This document shows positions 57,438 to 63,730 of a stretch of 64,000 nucleotides of DNA, piece by piece. Position numbers and translations under genes: made by a program. Where the stretch lies: positions 11,012 to 75,011 of the IMG/VR virus record IMGVR_UViG_3300017589_000080; one strand, given 5' to 3'. This stretch comes from a virus. Taxonomy: Duplodnaviria > Caudoviricetes. Every line of letters begins with the position of its first letter. Position 1 is the first letter of the stretch. Under the pieces are notes generated by a model that saw nothing but the letters and a program-made list of their open reading frames with translations, was not told the origin of the DNA and made no database searches.

Positions 57438-57764
57438 TTATTCCAAGTCATCAAATCTTCTATGCATGTCCCAATCATAAGAAAGTCTCTTGCCACAATT
57501 ACTACAGTAATGAGCATTCTCATCTTTAATCTCCAACCTGCAATCTGGACATCTCTCATCATGAGTTTCAATCCTATCTCTATCTTTCAAAACCTGCAGA
57601 TAAAACTTATCTGGAGAATTAATCTCACTTGAACACTCCCGACAGAATATTGTAGACTTATGTCTATCTGAAAGATCAATACCACATCTTAAACAAACAT
57701 GAACATAGATATCCCATTCTGGCTGTTTAACATCTAAAATAAACAATGGTGCAAATTTTGTCAA
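57438..57764 (-). CDS. Double zinc-ribbon protein
   Basis: CLRC...CREC and CPDC...CSNC; GGAGG RBS, TTG start. Confidence 0.7.
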   Translation of the reverse strand: MTKFAPLFILDVKQPEWDIYVHVCLRCGIDLSDRHKSTIFCRECSSEINSPDKFYLQVLKDRDRIETHDERCPDCRLEIKDENAHYCSNCGKRLSYDWDMHRRFDDLE

Positions 57765-57779
57765 ATTATCTTCCTCCTC

Positions 57780-58094
57780 TTAATCCAGTACAATCAATTC
57801 AGTATTACTATTTATCATTACATCAGCAGACTTTTTAATACTATAATAAGTATAACCTGTTTCAGAATCTACTGCCAGAACATATTCTTTACCACTGTCA
57901 TCAACGATCTTACTTAAGATTTGAGAATTACTCGTTGTCTCTGTAAGTTCTGCCGACATAACATATAATCTGAAACCTAAGAATAAGACAGCAGCAGTTA
58001 GAATAATTATAATCAGCATAGACAAGCCACTGAATAATTTATTGCCAGATTCTTCTCTAAATTCAATATTTTCTTCTTTAATATTCTTTTCCAA
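57780..58094 (-). CDS. Single-pass membrane protein
   Basis: LFSGLSMLIIIILTAAVLFLGF hydrophobic helix. Confidence 0.65.
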   Translation of the reverse strand: MEKNIKEENIEFREESGNKLFSGLSMLIIIILTAAVLFLGFRLYVMSAELTETTSNSQILSKIVDDSGKEYVLAVDSETGYTYYSIKKSADVMINSNTELIVLD

Positions 58095-58095
58095 T

Positions 58096-58467
58096 TTACT
58101 TCTCCATTCGAATAAAAATTTTTATTATCTCATAAGTTATCTCACTCCCAGCAGATCTGAGTTCAGCTACAAAATCCTCAATTGTGAAGATAAGGGCTTC
58201 AGTGCAGATATACATGGCTTGAGCTAAAGACTTATTGGTAAGCAATTCCTCATGGAAACTTGAATATGGACTAAACTTAATATAAGGGGACATTAAGTCA
58301 TGTAAAATTCTTCTGTCTTGATCAGAAATTATAAGGCTTACAGTGTAATAAGTTTCTTTGTCTGATGAAATACTTCCTCTTCCACGAGGTGGATTATAAG
58401 GAGGTTTTGCTGGTATATTAACATCTGGTTTAGTTGGTGGTAATCCTTTATTTTTAAAGCTTTTCAT
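58096..58467 (-). CDS. Hypothetical protein
   Basis: Pro-rich N-terminus; coupled to its neighbours. Confidence 0.6.
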   Translation of the reverse strand: MKSFKNKGLPPTKPDVNIPAKPPYNPPRGRGSISSDKETYYTVSLIISDQDRRILHDLMSPYIKFSPYSSFHEELLTNKSLAQAMYICTEALIFTIEDFVAELRSAGSEITYEIIKIFIRMEK

Positions 58468-58748
58468 TACTCCACACTCTCAAATGCTTTTACAAATTCA
58501 TCATTAGGTACTGAAAAGTATTTTCCTCGAGATCCTTTCACAATCCAGTCACCGTCTTCTAGTCCTACTTTGCCAACAAGAGTGTTAATAACAGGATTTT
58601 GTGCAGTCATCGTATTAGGATTTCCTTCGTCTCTAAGATCTCCATCGACCATGGGATAAGCATCATGTCTGTTGTAGACAAACGTTTCATAATCAAATTG
58701 AATTGCTTCAATAACTTCAGGGGTCTTTCTGAACTTTTTAAATTCCAT
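58467..58748 (-). CDS. Conserved phage protein of the K..P.VIEAIQF / GDW..KG family (possible nucleotide sponge)
   Basis: MEFKKFRKTPEVIEAIQF...INTLVG...DGDWIVKGSRGKYF...F.K.FE.V; start moved to 58748 after GAGGTG. Confidence 0.7.
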   Translation of the reverse strand: MEFKKFRKTPEVIEAIQFDYETFVYNRHDAYPMVDGDLRDEGNPNTMTAQNPVINTLVGKVGLEDGDWIVKGSRGKYFSVPNDEFVKAFESVE

Positions 58749-58749
58749 T

Positions 58750-59010
58750 CTACACCTCTTCATAAATTTGCTCAAATAATAATGCTGGACATATATCAAG
58801 TCTTCCGTCTTTAAACTTTAAAACCCAATCAGTGTCTCTTGCTCTTTTTAAACCATTCTTGTCACAGATTGTTAGTAATGATCTTCCCTCTAAATCGTGA
58901 TCAACAAGCAAAGATCTCTCTTCAGTAAGATTCTCAATTTCTTTGATATTATTACCTGTAAACTGTATTGCATCAATAATAAGTGTCGCTCTTTGTTTGT
59001 ACTTACTCAT
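58750..59010 (-). CDS. Divergent paralog of 58467
   Basis: MSKYKQR..IIDAIQFTGNN...G...R.TDWVLK..DG....C...FEQIYEEV. Confidence 0.65.
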   Translation of the reverse strand: MSKYKQRATLIIDAIQFTGNNIKEIENLTEERSLLVDHDLEGRSLLTICDKNGLKRARDTDWVLKFKDGRLDICPALLFEQIYEEV

Positions 59011-59212
59011 CTTTTTCACCAATGTACTCAGAGATCTTCTTTGAAAACTTGTCCAGACAAGAGTTGCAGATGTAAACGCACATTGCATTACGATTCATTC
59101 CAAGTTCAATAACGCTAAGTACTTCTCTTCCACTGTTCATTTCCCCACAAACATTACATCGTCTTATCTCTGACGGATCAATTCTTTTAACTTCCATTAT
59201 TGTACTGTTCAT
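59003..59212 (-). CDS. Zinc-ribbon protein
   Basis: CNVC...ICNSC. Confidence 0.65.
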   Translation of the reverse strand: MNSTIMEVKRIDPSEIRRCNVCGEMNSGREVLSVIELGMNRNAMCVYICNSCLDKFSKKISEYIGEKDE

Positions 59213-59221
59213 TATATCTCC

Positions 59222-59419
59222 TTAGTTCTTCCTGCTATAACTGCTACATTGTGAGTAATCTTCTCGATCATAGCATGTACAGTGACCATGTGGATAACAT
59301 CCTGAAGGAATTCCAAGAAGAGGATCTCTAGTACATGTACCATCTGACATCTTGTATCTGCAAACTATCTTCTCTTGCTCAATCCTGAGATTCTTGTAAT
59401 ACTCAGAATCATACTTCAT
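59222..59419 (-). CDS. Small protein with one five-Cys repeat
   Basis: C-x8-C-x17-CTC-x5-Y-x2-C-x2-Y; start probably MKYD at 59419, overlapping the end of the upstream gene. Confidence 0.65.
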   Translation of the reverse strand: MKYDSEYYKNLRIEQEKIVCRYKMSDGTCTRDPLLGIPSGCYPHGHCTCYDREDYSQCSSYSRKN

Positions 59420-60125
59420 TAGTTCCCTCAACATTTCTCATTTCTCTATCAAGTGTCCTCTTTCTCAATCTAAGAAGAACATTCTCAAGTTCAGTTATTG
59501 CAAGTGCATTATCTCTACATGAGAACTCACCATTTTGGAATGCTTCTAATCTTGTTAGAACCATTAGTAACAGATCTTCATTTGCAACGCCATTAACTCC
59601 AAACTCTTTAATTGGACCTTCTTGGAATTTAACTTTTGCAAACACTTCTCCGCCATTTTCTTCAGCCTTGCAGACTACAAAGTCATGCGGAGCATTTCCA
59701 AATTCTTTTTGCACATTAGACTCATGCAAAACTCGAGTGTATTTGGATGTACATAAACAATTCTTTACTTCAGTATAACCATGAGCAACTTTCATGTTCA
59801 TGTAAGTCTCTTTTAGACCACCAATTGGACGAAATTGATTACACATCTCATATTCATGATCTGAGATACATGCACACTTGTTGCCACCATTTATCATACC
59901 ACTTGGTCTCGAGAATATTGTGGCTTCACAATATCTACTATGTTCATTAAGATAACTGCAGGAGATTTTAGATTTATTCACGCTTATGTCCTCTTTCTTC
60001 TTATATTTATTACAAAACTCATACCCCTTTGGACTGTAACATCTACATTCACCAGTTCTAGAACTTCCAGATGATCCAACAATTCTGCACTTACCTGAAA
60101 GTGTCTCATACTCACATCTTTCCAT
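59409..60125 (-). CDS. tad1: Tad1-family anti-Thoeris/anti-CBASS sponge with N-terminal tandem five-Cys repeats
   Basis: C-terminal about 125 aa: SKYTRVLHE...APHDF...FQEGPIKE.GVNGV.NEDLL.MVL.RLEAFQ...CRDNA.AIT.LE...LRKRT..RE.RNVEGT matches Tad1 as I recall it. Confidence 0.85.
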   Translation of the reverse strand: MERCEYETLSGKCRIVGSSGSSRTGECRCYSPKGYEFCNKYKKKEDISVNKSKISCSYLNEHSRYCEATIFSRPSGMINGGNKCACISDHEYEMCNQFRPIGGLKETYMNMKVAHGYTEVKNCLCTSKYTRVLHESNVQKEFGNAPHDFVVCKAEENGGEVFAKVKFQEGPIKEFGVNGVANEDLLLMVLTRLEAFQNGEFSCRDNALAITELENVLLRLRKRTLDREMRNVEGTNEV

Positions 60126-60307
60126 TATTCCTCCTCAAAACAATCACAATCTTCATAGTCCTCATCAGTTTCACATTGGCAGTAACCAAATCCATCAGCT
60201 CCACTAGCAATGAAAAACCCTAATTGACTTTTTCTACAATTACCAAAAATTATCATCTCATTCTCACATTCTAAATTATAAGACATTAGGATCTTCCTCC
60301 GAACCAC
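60125..60307 (-). CDS. Small protein with one five-Cys repeat
   Basis: C-x9-C-x18-CQC-x5-Y-x2-C-x2-F; stop overlaps the next start. Confidence 0.65.
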   Translation of the reverse strand: MVRRKILMSYNLECENEMIIFGNCRKSQLGFFIASGADGFGYCQCETDEDYEDCDCFEEE

Positions 60308-60614
60308 ATAAGATTAGTTTTTGTCCAATACCTGTTCCAAGTTCACATTCAAAATGATCAAAGTGTTCTTTACAAACATATCCCCACAATGTTCCAATGC
60401 TTCTTAATTGAGCATCATATTCTGCAGGCTTTCCACAGCCATCAATACAACAAACTGGAATTCTTGTAACAACTGCAGCAATTATATTCTCTTCTTCATC
60501 ATCTGTACTGTCTTCACAGCAGTCTTCGCACAAAACCATACTGTTACTATAACTCATGTTGTCGTGACCAATTGCATCCAAGTCTCTCCCACAAATTGAA
60601 CATCTTATTGCCAT
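60276..60614 (-). CDS. Two-zinc-finger protein
   Basis: CSIC...CEDC and C.IDGC...CKEH; first gene after motif copy 2. Confidence 0.7.
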   Translation of the reverse strand: MAIRCSICGRDLDAIGHDNMSYSNSMVLCEDCCEDSTDDEEENIIAAVVTRIPVCCIDGCGKPAEYDAQLRSIGTLWGYVCKEHFDHFECELGTGIGQKLILCGSEEDPNVL

Positions 60615-60621
60615 TTTAATT

Positions 60622-60665
60622 CCTCCATTATTTAAGTATTTTTTACTTACACAATTAACAACGTT
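60622..60665 (-). promoter_or_regulatory. Conserved promoter/operator plus RBS motif, copy 2
   Basis: Reverse strand reads AACGTTGTTAATTGTGTAAGTAAAAAATACTTAAATAATGGAGG (41/44 identical to copy 1). Confidence 0.8.
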
Positions 60666-60682
60666 TAAAAGAATTTAAAACA

Positions 60683-61024
60683 TCAAACCAGATTAACATA
60701 CTTTTTATCAATATTTCCCTCATAGATAAAGTATGGATTATCTGGATCATAAATATGTTCATCATCGAATTCAACACCATCGTCATCATGCCAGTACTCT
60801 CGCCAATCATGAAGTCTGTTGGTATCTGGTATTGTTACTCTAAACATAAAACCACCCTTATTAAATGGAACTGGGTTACTCATCAGATAAACACAGTAGT
60901 CATCATCTGCTGTTAGACCATTATTTAGAACATAATCTTTCACTCTCTCACTTTCAACCCAGTGATATAAAAATTCAATCTCGTCAACATCAGTAATCTG
61001 CTCTTCATTTATAACTTTTATCAT
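60683..61024 (-). CDS. Putative ART/Tpt1(KptA)-like fold protein
   Basis: LYHW...VLNNGL...VYLM...G..FRV.IP...YEGNI layout resembles the NAD-binding domain of Tpt1/ART proteins; MIKVINEE leader. Confidence 0.45.
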   Translation of the reverse strand: MIKVINEEQITDVDEIEFLYHWVESERVKDYVLNNGLTADDDYCVYLMSNPVPFNKGGFMFRVTIPDTNRLHDWREYWHDDDGVEFDDEHIYDPDNPYFIYEGNIDKKYVNLV

Positions 61025-61227
61025 TAGTCTTCCTCTCTGTCAAAGAATGCGATACATGCTTTACAAGTATCATGTGGCTCATCATTTGTATCACTACAGA
61101 CATAACCTTGACATAAATTATCTTCAACAAGAGGACAACCAATTCCCCAATCATAAACTGCTAGTTGTATCAATTTACAATTACCAATTGTTTCCTCTAC
61201 TTCAGGTGTCATATTACTTAATTCCAT
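61024..61227 (-). CDS. Cys-rich hypothetical protein
   Basis: GGAG RBS; six Cys including CKAC. Confidence 0.6.
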   Translation of the reverse strand: MELSNMTPEVEETIGNCKLIQLAVYDWGIGCPLVEDNLCQGYVCSDTNDEPHDTCKACIAFFDREED

Positions 61228-61236
61228 TCTGTCTCC

Positions 61237-61380
61237 TTAAATAAATGCAAAATACAGAGCAACCATTACAACTGGTATAGCTGAGTGAGCAATAACAGGA
61301 TACTTAAACTTAGTAAGAACTGCAATAGTTGTTAAAGTAAGTGCAATGCCAGAACAAATAATTGAAATAGTGTCATTCAT
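61237..61380 (-). CDS. Small two-helix membrane peptide (not in ORF track)
   Basis: MNDTISIICSGIALTLTTIAVLTKFKYPVIAHSAIPVVMVALYFAFI; start overlaps the YopX stop and it exactly fills the gap. Confidence 0.65.
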   Translation of the reverse strand: MNDTISIICSGIALTLTTIAVLTKFKYPVIAHSAIPVVMVALYFAFI

Positions 61381-61835
61381 TACCAGTTACCAAAAGAAGC
61401 ATCAGAAATTATCTTCTCCCCATCTTGAACATTTGAAATAACTCTAACATGATCACACCAATCATACAAGTCAAATGTCTCGCCACTGTATATTTCTTGA
61501 ACTACCCATTTCCCATATTCATCACCCCACATTACAGTTCCAGTATCCACAAGATCTTCACCATTTGGACCTTCTGAATAGTATGTTCCTAATAAAATAT
61601 CTTTATCATAGATATCAACCTTCTCTTCAGTGTCATCTTTTAATCCTGTACATCTTGACACTGTCTCCTCAATTATATTAACTAATTCAAGACTACCATC
61701 TCCAAGATTCTGATGTATAATAGATGGACCAGACTCATGTTCAACAAAGTAGCCAAACACCCAATTCTCATTTACATCCTGTACGTTGACAACTCTCTTT
61801 GCTTTGCATTTTAACAAATCTCTATTCATTAACAT
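61380..61835 (-). CDS. YopX family protein
   Basis: KCKAK...WVFG...ETVSRCTGLKD...IYDKDIL...V.W...VISNV. Confidence 0.85.
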   Translation of the reverse strand: MLMNRDLLKCKAKRVVNVQDVNENWVFGYFVEHESGPSIIHQNLGDGSLELVNIIEETVSRCTGLKDDTEEKVDIYDKDILLGTYYSEGPNGEDLVDTGTVMWGDEYGKWVVQEIYSGETFDLYDWCDHVRVISNVQDGEKIISDASFGNW

Positions 61836-62083
61836 CTCCCCATTTCTTCGAGTTCTTCTTTTGTAATTTCTTTCAAGTCAAGATGAAACATAATATTAGA
61901 AGCTAAGTGACTTGCTGTATCCCATTGATCTAGATCTCTCATAAGTTCTACAACAACATTATAAAGAACTCTTACTTGTTCTTCTAAGCTCTCTATCCTA
62001 CATTGTTCATCAGTTTTTACCTTTTTATAATCATTAACTTTTATTGATGCAGTTCTTATATCTTCTTTTAAATCATTAGACAT
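61829..62083 (-). CDS. Hypothetical protein
   Basis: Coupled ORF, coiled-coil-like. Confidence 0.6.
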   Translation of the reverse strand: MSNDLKEDIRTASIKVNDYKKVKTDEQCRIESLEEQVRVLYNVVVELMRDLDQWDTASHLASNIMFHLDLKEITKEELEEMGRC

Positions 62084-62085
62084 AC

Positions 62086-62283
62086 TCAGACACCTTCATC
62101 CTTCTCCAGCTCTAGATATAATTTAGCTAGATCTGATCTAACAGATACCAGTGTTAATATCTTTTCAGTAGTTGCTTCCACTTCTTCAACAGTACTGCAA
62201 GCTTCTAATAAGTCTGCAATTTCATCTAATACTTTTTGAAAAGACTTGTTGTCAATAATATTAGTTACTTCTTCTTTAGTCAT
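62086..62283 (-). CDS. Hypothetical protein
   Basis: GGAGGA RBS 7 nt before ATG 62283; the track extension to 62388 is probably non-coding. Confidence 0.6.
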   Translation of the reverse strand: MTKEEVTNIIDNKSFQKVLDEIADLLEACSTVEEVEATTEKILTLVSVRSDLAKLYLELEKDEGV

Positions 62284-62350
62284 AATCATATCCTCCAATA
62301 TTTTTATTTTATTGTAATAGCTAAAACAATTAAGATAACAACAAAGTATA

Positions 62351-62572
62351 TCAAATTTTATAGGTCTCAACATTTGGTTTTGAATCAACTATTGTAAATT
62401 CTGTTAGCTCAAGAAGACCTCTCTTGCCTTCTTCATTTTCAACATCATATTCTACTTCAACAATTACACTTGGATCTTCAGGTTCTGGTTCTCTTCTTGA
62501 CCTTACTTCTGTATAATTAGATAAAATTCTTTCAACCTCTTCCATGTAGAAGCTTTTAAAACCATCAATCAT
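62351..62572 (-). CDS. Hypothetical protein
   Basis: Coupled to the upstream stop; acidic. Confidence 0.55.
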   Translation of the reverse strand: MIDGFKSFYMEEVERILSNYTEVRSRREPEPEDPSVIVEVEYDVENEEGKRGLLELTEFTIVDSKPNVETYKI

Positions 62573-62868
62573 TAGTATCTTACCCCTTTATTTGTAACTG
62601 ACAGAGACCTGAAATTAGCCACGCCTTTTAGACCTGTTCCAACAGACTCATAAACAAGAGTTATAGAATCATCATTGATTTTAGTTTCAACGATACTTAT
62701 ACTCTTGTCATTTAGAAACTTATAGAAAGGAGTTTTTGCAATCTTAACCATATTTCCTTTAGAATTTACAAATGATAATAAATTATTGTATCTTTTGTTC
62801 TTATCTATTCCATTGTATTTCCAACTGCCAAAGTCATAGTTGTTCCTTTGTTCTTCAATATCTGTCAT
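62572..62868 (-). CDS. Hypothetical protein
   Basis: GAGG RBS, 98 aa. Confidence 0.6.
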   Translation of the reverse strand: MTDIEEQRNNYDFGSWKYNGIDKNKRYNNLLSFVNSKGNMVKIAKTPFYKFLNDKSISIVETKINDDSITLVYESVGTGLKGVANFRSLSVTNKGVRY

Positions 62869-62896
62869 TTCATAACCTCTCTTTACTTATTAATTT

Positions 62897-62934
62897 AAAT
62901 TGGGGAGATGCTATAAACCACACCTCCCCAATTT
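62897..62934 (-). terminator. GC-rich hairpin, probable terminator or attenuator
   Basis: AAATTGGGGAG / CTCCCCAATTT 11-bp perfect stem. Confidence 0.6.
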
Positions 62935-63037
62935 TGTTATCTATTTTCTTGCAGACAATACAAGAATACCAATTATAGCGACTACAACTTGGAATATTAT
63001 ATATTTTAAGAAAAACCCAAGTACTGAAGCCATTAGT

Positions 63038-63253
63038 CTAGTCGTTTTCTATTCTTTTAGCATGTTTGATGTAAATAAATCTTTTAGTTGGAACTCCATC
63101 TTCAATAACAACGTATGAATTCTTGTTCCATTTGTCTCCCCACATAACATCGAACTGTTCTCCAATTCTATTCATATACCATGTAGCATAACTACCACCA
63201 ACACTTGGAATAACTTCTACTTTGAATACAATCTTTTCAGCTTTACCACCCAT
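63038..63253 (-). CDS. Hypothetical protein
   Basis: First gene after motif copy 3; AAGGAG RBS. Confidence 0.65.
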   Translation of the reverse strand: MGGKAEKIVFKVEVIPSVGGSYATWYMNRIGEQFDVMWGDKWNKNSYVVIEDGVPTKRFIYIKHAKRIEND

Positions 63254-63260
63254 AATAATT

Positions 63261-63303
63261 CTCCTTTATTTAAGTATTTTATACTTACATAATTAACAAC
63301 GTT
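63261..63303 (-). promoter_or_regulatory. Conserved promoter/operator plus RBS motif, copy 3
   Basis: Reverse strand reads AACGTTGTTAATTATGTAAGTATAAAATACTTAAATAAAGGAG. Confidence 0.8.
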
Positions 63304-63325
63304 ACAGAGTGGTAAAAACATCTAA

Positions 63326-63730
63326 TTATTTACATGACCATTCAACAAAGCAGAAGTCTTCAATCATTACAAATCTGTCTTTGATAAAATGTCCAAACCC
63401 ACAAACTTTTCCATCATTAACAATAACTCTGATAGGAGTGTTAGTAAGAGCACTTAATGAGTATCCATCTTCTTCGCTAAGATCTAAAAACTGCATTATA
63501 AATCTAAGCATGAATCCAATATTTTTTGTATTGTTCCTGTTGGATATTACATAATGACTATCACAAATCAGAGTGAGCATTGGGACATCACCAAAATGAC
63601 CAATAAACTTTATTGTAGCATCAATTATTACTTCATTCTCGATTGTATATCCACAGTTAGCACCAATAATATCTTGCTTAGTGTAGATCTTACAAGGCAT
63701 TCTATTAAATTCATTAGTCATTATTAGCAC
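63326..63730 (-). CDS. Hypothetical protein
   Basis: 134-aa ORF with a GAAGGTG RBS-like context; G..HFIKD C-terminal motif. Confidence 0.6.
   Translation of the reverse strand: MLIMTNEFNRMPCKIYTKQDIIGANCGYTIENEVIIDATIKFIGHFGDVPMLTLICDSHYVISNRNNTKNIGFMLRFIMQFLDLSEEDGYSLSALTNTPIRVIVNDGKVCGFGHFIKDRFVMIEDFCFVEWSCK

Follow-up and report, generated by a model that had tools for sequence, protein, structure and literature searches.

The locus described here raises two questions: whether a 238-residue phage protein (P0001), whose C-terminal part resembles the immune-signal sponge Tad1, is a genuine fusion with a working sponge domain, and what the Cys-rich sequence in front of this domain contributes. 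P0001 is encoded on an IMG/VR virus contig of 75 kb with an estimated completeness of 62%. The window, that is, the whole stretch of 64,000 nucleotides that was analysed, comprises bases 11012-75011 of this contig and has a GC content of 35%. Its plus strand carries genes for portal, protease, major head, sheath and tail proteins, which indicates that the phage is myovirus-like. From about 57.4 kb to the window end, small, densely packed and frequently overlapping ORFs occupy the minus strand (Table 1), and the proteins of this early region (57438-63730, minus strand) contain on average 4.2% Cys, compared with 0.73% for 26 structural proteins. Of the small early ORFs, at least six, including the module ORFs described below, encode 5-11 Cys each. 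The AT-rich gap at 60615-60682 is the sole sizeable intergenic space ahead of the overlapping gene run down to position 57438, and is therefore probably the promoter region of the early operon.

No close relatives of the phage were retrieved by megablast against phages or by a scan with tail proteins. A capsid scan returned two short contigs with 59% identity, both lacking Tad1, and a metagenome scan for phage relatives yielded only one distant stand-alone Tad1. Outside the window, the contig encodes a Tad2-like protein (93-aa open frame; PF11195 with E 1.5e-12, a match better than the curated cut-off), so that the phage carries two different Thoeris/CBASS sponge families; neither PF13876 (Acb4) nor PF21825 was found on the contig.

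Table 1. Features of the P0001 locus and of the same contig; positions refer to the window unless stated otherwise.
Feature	Position	Strand	Remarks
Tad1-fusion ORF (P0001), 238 aa	59409..60125	minus	module B, linker, module C, linker, Tad1 domain, stop
Shine-Dalgarno GAGGAGGA of M1	60129..60136	minus	4-5 nt before ATG
Cys module B, residues 4-38 (C4, C13, C27, C29, C38)	60012..60116	minus	
In-frame GTG, V49	59979..59981	minus	AGAGGA 7 nt upstream
Cys module C, residues 56-95 (C56, C66, C84, C86, C95)	59841..59960	minus	
Internal ATGs M109 (59801) and M111 (59795)	59793..59803	minus	where stand-alone Tad1 homologues start
Tad1 domain (residues 111-238) and stop codon	59409..59795	minus	
Upstream ORF	60125..60307	minus	one stand-alone Cys module and acidic tail
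Downstream ORF	59222..59434	minus	one stand-alone Cys module; overlaps end of Tad1 ORF
Double zinc ribbon ORF, Cys-rich	57438-57764	minus	
phrog_419/1810/4502 family gene	58467-58799	minus	tandem paralogue
phrog_419/1810/4502 family gene	58750-59088	minus	tandem paralogue
Cys-rich small ORF	59003-59212	minus	
112-aa, 11-Cys ORF	60276-60614	minus	strong RBS GGAGGA
AT-rich gap, 68 nt	60615-60682	minus	upstream of the 11-Cys ORF 60276-60614
Cys-rich small ORF	61024-61227	minus	
Tad2-like gene	L049:1501-1707 = G000:C1:2362-2568, outside window	plus	PF11195

The first-pass annotation had described one uninterrupted ORF of 238 aa, and the frame is indeed open from the ATG at 60125-60123 to the TGA at 59411-59409, with no internal stop and a predicted 27-kDa product. 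Given the base composition, the probability of an open N-terminal stretch of 110 codons is ~5e-4, and 0.28% of the antisense runs between stops attain this length, so that the open frame in front of the Tad1 domain is unlikely to have arisen by chance.

The identity of the C-terminal part is clear from profile and structural comparisons. Residues 110-238 match phrog_2428 with an E of 1.3e-41, the alignment covering positions 3-130 of the 131 in the profile, and residues 116-238 align with residues 9-132 of the CmTad1 chain in PDB entry 8kbb, named 'Thoeris anti-defense 1' (E 1.6e-38); CbTad1 is matched with an E of 1.1e-14. The full Tad1-like domain previously assigned to residues ~111-238 is thus borne out. 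An AF2 model computed from a 149-row alignment reaches a pLDDT of 87-98 over residues 111-238 and displays strands between residues 130 and 167, followed by helices 182-197 and 204-229; this corresponds to the Tad1 fold, in which an N-terminal antiparallel β-sheet precedes two long C-terminal helices. The first-pass annotation had suggested an alignment to Tad1 structures, which was carried out on this model with Foldseek and gave a TM of 0.86 to 8kbb_E (rmsd 2.0 Å, 55% identity) and of 0.85 to CbTad1 (7uaw_A). The C-terminal 70 residues also match the inner capsid vertex protein gp184 of phiKZ (PDB 8y6v_I, E 7.6e-07), and many Bacillus-phage homologues of Tad1 are annotated as 'structural protein' in GenBank.

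Ligand-binding residues were mapped via HMMER alignments onto those named in section 6 of 10.1101/2023.11.15.567273. The pocket for gcADPR and cyclic dinucleotides involves F82, N92, R109 and R113 of CbTad1 (10.1101/2023.11.15.567273). All four are kept in P0001 as F196, N206, R223 and R227, and the respective columns are near-invariant (140-144 of 145-146 relatives). The cyclic-trinucleotide contacts R88 and T95 of CmTad1 (10.1101/2023.11.15.567273) are likewise kept, as R204 and T211, and C87, A91 and M92 of the same pocket correspond to C203, A207 and L208, which were scored as kept. As judged from these alignments, the Tad1 domain of P0001 is apparently ligand-competent.

The contacts between dimers are less regular. 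Binding of cyclic trinucleotides requires the Tad1 hexamer (10.1101/2023.11.15.567273), a trimer of dimers whose interface residues K96, Q98, E99, M102, W103 and K106 in CmTad1 correspond to E212, E214, N215, L218, R219 and K222 in P0001 (residues 212-222, window positions 59460-59490). Three of the six positions are usual and three are unusual (K96 to E212, E99 to N215 and W103 to R219). In the W103 column, 107 of the 145 relatives have Trp and 5 have Arg; P0004, a close relative that stands alone, likewise carries Arg here. The Tad1 part of P0001 may therefore be a dimer or use other inter-dimer contacts. Owing to this atypical interface and the need for a hexamer, hexamer formation and cyclic-trinucleotide binding are uncertain, and less certain than the binding of gcADPR.

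The N-terminal part has a different make-up. Two five-Cys repeats had been noticed within residues 1-100, and both could be located, at residues 4-38 (module B) and 56-95 (module C). The module spans ~40 aa with the pattern C-x8/9-C-x13-17-C-x-C-x8-C; Lys-rich linkers join B and C, and each P0001 chain contains ten module Cys. Both flanking ORFs encode the module as a free protein. The likely start of the upstream ORF is M8 at 60286 (RBS -9.5), which yields a protein of 53 aa with a pI of 4.05 (P0152), and that of the downstream ORF is M6 at 59419 (RBS -6.1), which yields 65 aa (P0151). The locus thus holds four copies, two in P0001 and one in each flanking ORF. Their pairwise local alignments have z-scores of 4.8-8.4 against 1000 shuffles, of which 0-1 attained the observed score. 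An SG pair, the CxC motif, a Tyr and the first and last Cys are invariant across the four copies, and the second Cys is present in all of them, although shifted by one residue in module C. The copies share 27-41% identity and no DNA repeats, which indicates that the array is old.

AF2 models give the module region a pLDDT of 31-64, and a single-sequence model a pLDDT of 36; the sole recurrent element predicted in these low-pLDDT models is a β-hairpin carrying the first two Cys. A classical zinc ribbon was considered for the module and rejected, because the spacing lacks a CxxC and no profile matched at E up to 1. Since five Cys are invariant in a cytoplasmic phage protein, the module nevertheless probably binds a metal, likeliest zinc; no metal-binding family was matched.

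Relatives of the module were sought widely. Residues 1-110 had no match in profile searches of Pfam, PHROGs, NCBIfam or the PDB. In a set of 5.8 billion proteins, residues 1-112, searched against proteins of near and of shorter length, and a module profile recovered only the contig's own ORFs, and the P0001 cluster in this set consists of one member from one contig. Scans of IMG/VR with P0001 and the module profile revealed no module relatives, 50,697 phage records searched by tblastn with residues 1-105 contained no match at E up to 10, and a module HMM found none in the best 150 Tad1 relatives or in 37-38 Tad1 loci of bacterial genomes. Further candidates were discarded: a lone match among 399 Clostridia-class genomes (E 9.5e-4), lying antisense inside a large gene, was regarded as noise; a match in G007 contained an internal stop; and neighbours in the ESM Atlas, with feature scores of 0.76-0.84 and a TM below 0.5, fell under the lead threshold. 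Across the sets searched, the five-Cys module appears to be a new orphan, found only in the P0001 gene and its two neighbours.

Extended Tad1 proteins, by contrast with this particular module, are common. When 1.84 billion cluster representatives were searched with HMMER, 3,308 Tad1-family proteins had E below 1e-3, and the best 150 of these were surveyed. N-terminal extensions of at least 40 aa are present in 60 of these 150 and C-terminal extensions in 7; in bacterial genomes, ~7-9 of 37 genes (prophage copies) encode an extended Tad1. The earlier statement that characterized Tad1 proteins stand alone therefore does not extend to the family members surveyed, so that the contrast drawn from it overstates how rare a fused Tad1 is, and the survey of fusion architectures suggested along with it shows add-ons to be frequent, with the five-Cys module in none of the 150 relatives. 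For the nearest Tad1 cluster representatives (best 150 of 3,308), a common assumption is thereby corrected, as ~40% of them are not stand-alone. The ratio of 60 N-terminal to 7 C-terminal extensions indicates that N-terminal add-ons are tolerated, and the bias fits a C-terminal loop that moves on ligand binding and an N-terminus inferred to be exposed. Fusion of Tad1 as such is hence already a known theme, and only the module is new.

Among 65 extended Tad1 proteins, the partner is of the phrog_9467/872 type in ~7, of the phrog_419/1810/4502 type in ~5 and Acb4 (PF13876) in one. Different Cys-rich appendages with 4-13 Cys occur N-terminally in P0020, P0035, P0037 and P0071 and C-terminally in P0075 and P0147; none of the six has significant similarity to the five-Cys module. 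Cys-rich add-ons to Tad1 may thus be a recurring theme. The recurrent partners, with the phrog_419-type domain among them, provide a list of anti-defence candidates.

The phrog_419-type domain is also encoded next to P0001, by two tandem paralogues that match phrog_419/1810/4502 with E 2.5e-13 and 4.4e-07 to 9.5e-07. It is the N-terminal partner of Tad1 in P0008, P0022, P0023, P0051, P0117, P0150, L013, L020 and L027, and the free ORFs resemble the Tad1-fused versions with BLASTP E values of 1e-8 and 2e-5; no relative in the PDB was found by sequence. The first reading of the sequence had taken these two ORFs for Acb4, an identity that had to be abandoned because Pfam finds no PF13876 in either of them. 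Through fusion and neighbourhood, the phrog_419-type family is linked to Tad1 and is a candidate anti-defence family.

How the three units of P0001 came to share one frame can be read in part from their junctions. The N-termini of stand-alone Tad1 proteins fall opposite P0001 residues 108-117, and the sequence from M111 onwards aligns with them. Taken together, the homologue starts at M109/M111, the free modules in the neighbouring genes and the V49 codon with its start-like signal suggest that P0001 is an in-frame fusion of three once separate genes, two from the module array and tad1. The old Tad1 start would survive as M109/M111, and the V49 GTG may go back to a module-C gene that was once independent, as a relic or as a minor start. 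Out-of-frame TAA triplets upstream of V49 and M109 were also considered as relics of former stops, and were dismissed because TAA is too frequent in DNA of 35% GC. The ribosome-binding sites before M109/M111 have decayed to background, which suggests that the fusion is not very recent.

A one-off accident is the alternative that survives best, even though we regard it as improbable. According to this explanation, a recent indel, the loss of a stop codon or an assembly or sequencing error welded neighbouring genes, the fusion added no function, and the units work separately. P0001 is a singleton cluster from one contig, its architecture is absent from the best 150 Tad1 representatives and from 37 genomic loci, and start-like signals are left at both junctions (V49 with its AGAGGA, and M109/M111), all of which would suit an accident; as protein and module are confined to one contig, selection for the fusion is conjectural. 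However, an accident requires two independent in-frame junctions, and neither DNA repeats nor homopolymers are present there to explain an assembly or read error. In agreement, no DNA repeats longer than 15 nt that could mislead an assembler were detected in 59150-60350, which speaks against the assembly error named by the first-pass annotation as a way in which the fusion might dissolve. The decayed sites before M109/M111 conflict with a very recent event, and N-terminal fusions to Tad1 are common and evidently tolerated.

The translation signals bear on which product is made. The M1 Shine-Dalgarno sequence has an anti-SD duplex energy of -11.5 kcal/mol, which ranks within the best tenth of genes in the window (median -6.75 kcal/mol over 44 real genes of the window). 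In addition, the TAA stop of the upstream ORF overlaps the P0001 ATG (TAATG), which suggests that translation of P0001 is coupled to that of the upstream ORF. M109 and M111 have energies of -2.9 kcal/mol each, close to the mean of -1.2 for all ATGs on that strand, consistent with the weak ribosome-binding site already ascribed to them. At the V49 GTG the energy is -5.8 kcal/mol, inside the range of real genes, and a minor module-C-Tad1 isoform may originate from this codon. The region contains 10 promoter-like sites, compared with 10.8 in shuffles, and is thus not enriched in them. Because the M1 site is strong and coupled through TAATG, whereas those of M109/M111 are near background, the full-length protein is the predicted main product, and the start signals thus disfavour the production of only a short internal-start form, which had been put forward as an outcome that would overturn the fusion. 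An explanation by internal initiation, in which the main Tad1 product is a 128-130-aa protein from M109/M111 or module-C-Tad1 from V49 and the long form is minor, has the exact position of M109/M111 at the start of stand-alone Tad1 genes and the moderate site of V49 on its side; it is nonetheless a distinctly unlikely one, given the near-background energies of M109/M111, the strength and coupling of M1 and the shuffle-level number of promoter-like sites.

Taken together, the data are explained best by a fused Tad1 sponge that bears metal-stabilized modules with an activity of their own, and we assign this reading as a whole a probability of about 0.6. P0001 would be produced from an early operon in which genes for small Cys-rich proteins are tightly packed. 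The Tad1 part would oligomerize and sequester gcADPR at the dimer pocket, so that Thoeris is blunted, and, if hexamers still form, would also sequester cyclic trinucleotides and blunt CBASS. The modules would be knobs stabilized by a metal, most likely zinc, and held outside the Tad1 core by flexible Lys-rich linkers. The first-pass annotation had allowed for a sensor, a partner-binding site or a second anti-defence activity in these modules. Since they are also present as free proteins, they probably are active on their own; our guess is that they bind a host or defence protein, and an oligomeric Tad1 scaffold would multiply and co-deliver this activity. As to the parts of this model, it is likely that the fusion is real and its Tad1 functional, whereas a separate counter-defence activity of the modules is a tentative proposal that we hold to be rather doubtful. 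The setting is one of counter-defence, with the Tad2-like gene on the contig and two phrog_419-type genes downstream of P0001.

That the modules are instead a regulatory or architectural appendage without a target of its own, altering Tad1 assembly (for example by replacing weakened hexamer contacts) or rendering Tad1 responsive to metal or redox state, would accommodate the atypical hexamer interface (W103 to R219, K96 to E212, E99 to N215) and the ten Cys brought by the modules to each chain, but is very improbable, because the Arg at the Trp position of stand-alone P0004 shows that this change is not tied to fusion and the free module proteins on both sides argue for an activity of their own.

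Under the preferred reading of a fused sponge with active modules, P0001 is to all appearances a true variant of Tad1 whose appendage is new, uncharacterized and probably metal-binding. A bolder proposal, which we think unlikely, is that the five-Cys module founds a new anti-defence family, an inhibitor or sponge that acts both as a free mini-protein and in 4-12 copies on the Tad1 oligomer. If so, one protein would disarm two arms of host immunity, and fusion to Tad1 would mark the module as fusion to Tad2 or Acb4 marked Sequestin. Because sponge fusions led to Sequestin, an orphan module fused to Tad1 is a candidate counter-defence activity; amplified four times at one locus, it offers a cheap and well-defined candidate for a second such activity.

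Comparison with known systems places P0001 among the nucleotide sponges. Across the whole domain it shares 55% identity with CmTad1 from a Clostridioides mangenotii prophage (PDB 8KBB-8KBD; TM 0.86), and it has the cyclic-trinucleotide R/T contacts of this protein as well as the gcADPR/cyclic-dinucleotide pocket residues of CbTad1 (7UAV/7UAW, 8KBE-8KBH). It differs from both in an additional 110-residue N-terminal extension and an extra CxC at residues 123/125, and from CmTad1 in three of six hexamer-interface residues, the Trp included.

Published sponge-sponge fusions comprise Acb4-Tad2, Tad2-Sequestin and Acb4-Sequestin, and such fusions were used to discover Sequestin (PMC12265669; 10.64898/2026.06.04.730250). 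Like these, P0001 combines a nucleotide sponge with a small module that also exists as a free phage protein. Unlike them, its partner matches no known sponge or family, is Cys-rich and tandemly duplicated, and has so far been seen on one contig only. The closest architectural parallels are metagenomic Tad1 fusions that look unpublished, such as P0079 (Acb4(PF13876)-Tad1), P0008, P0022 and P0023 (phrog_419-type-Tad1) and P0002 and P0047 (phrog_872/9467-Tad1). They too consist of an N-terminal partner and a C-terminal Tad1 with a total length of 190-250 aa; all of them lack the five-Cys module, of which P0001 has two copies.
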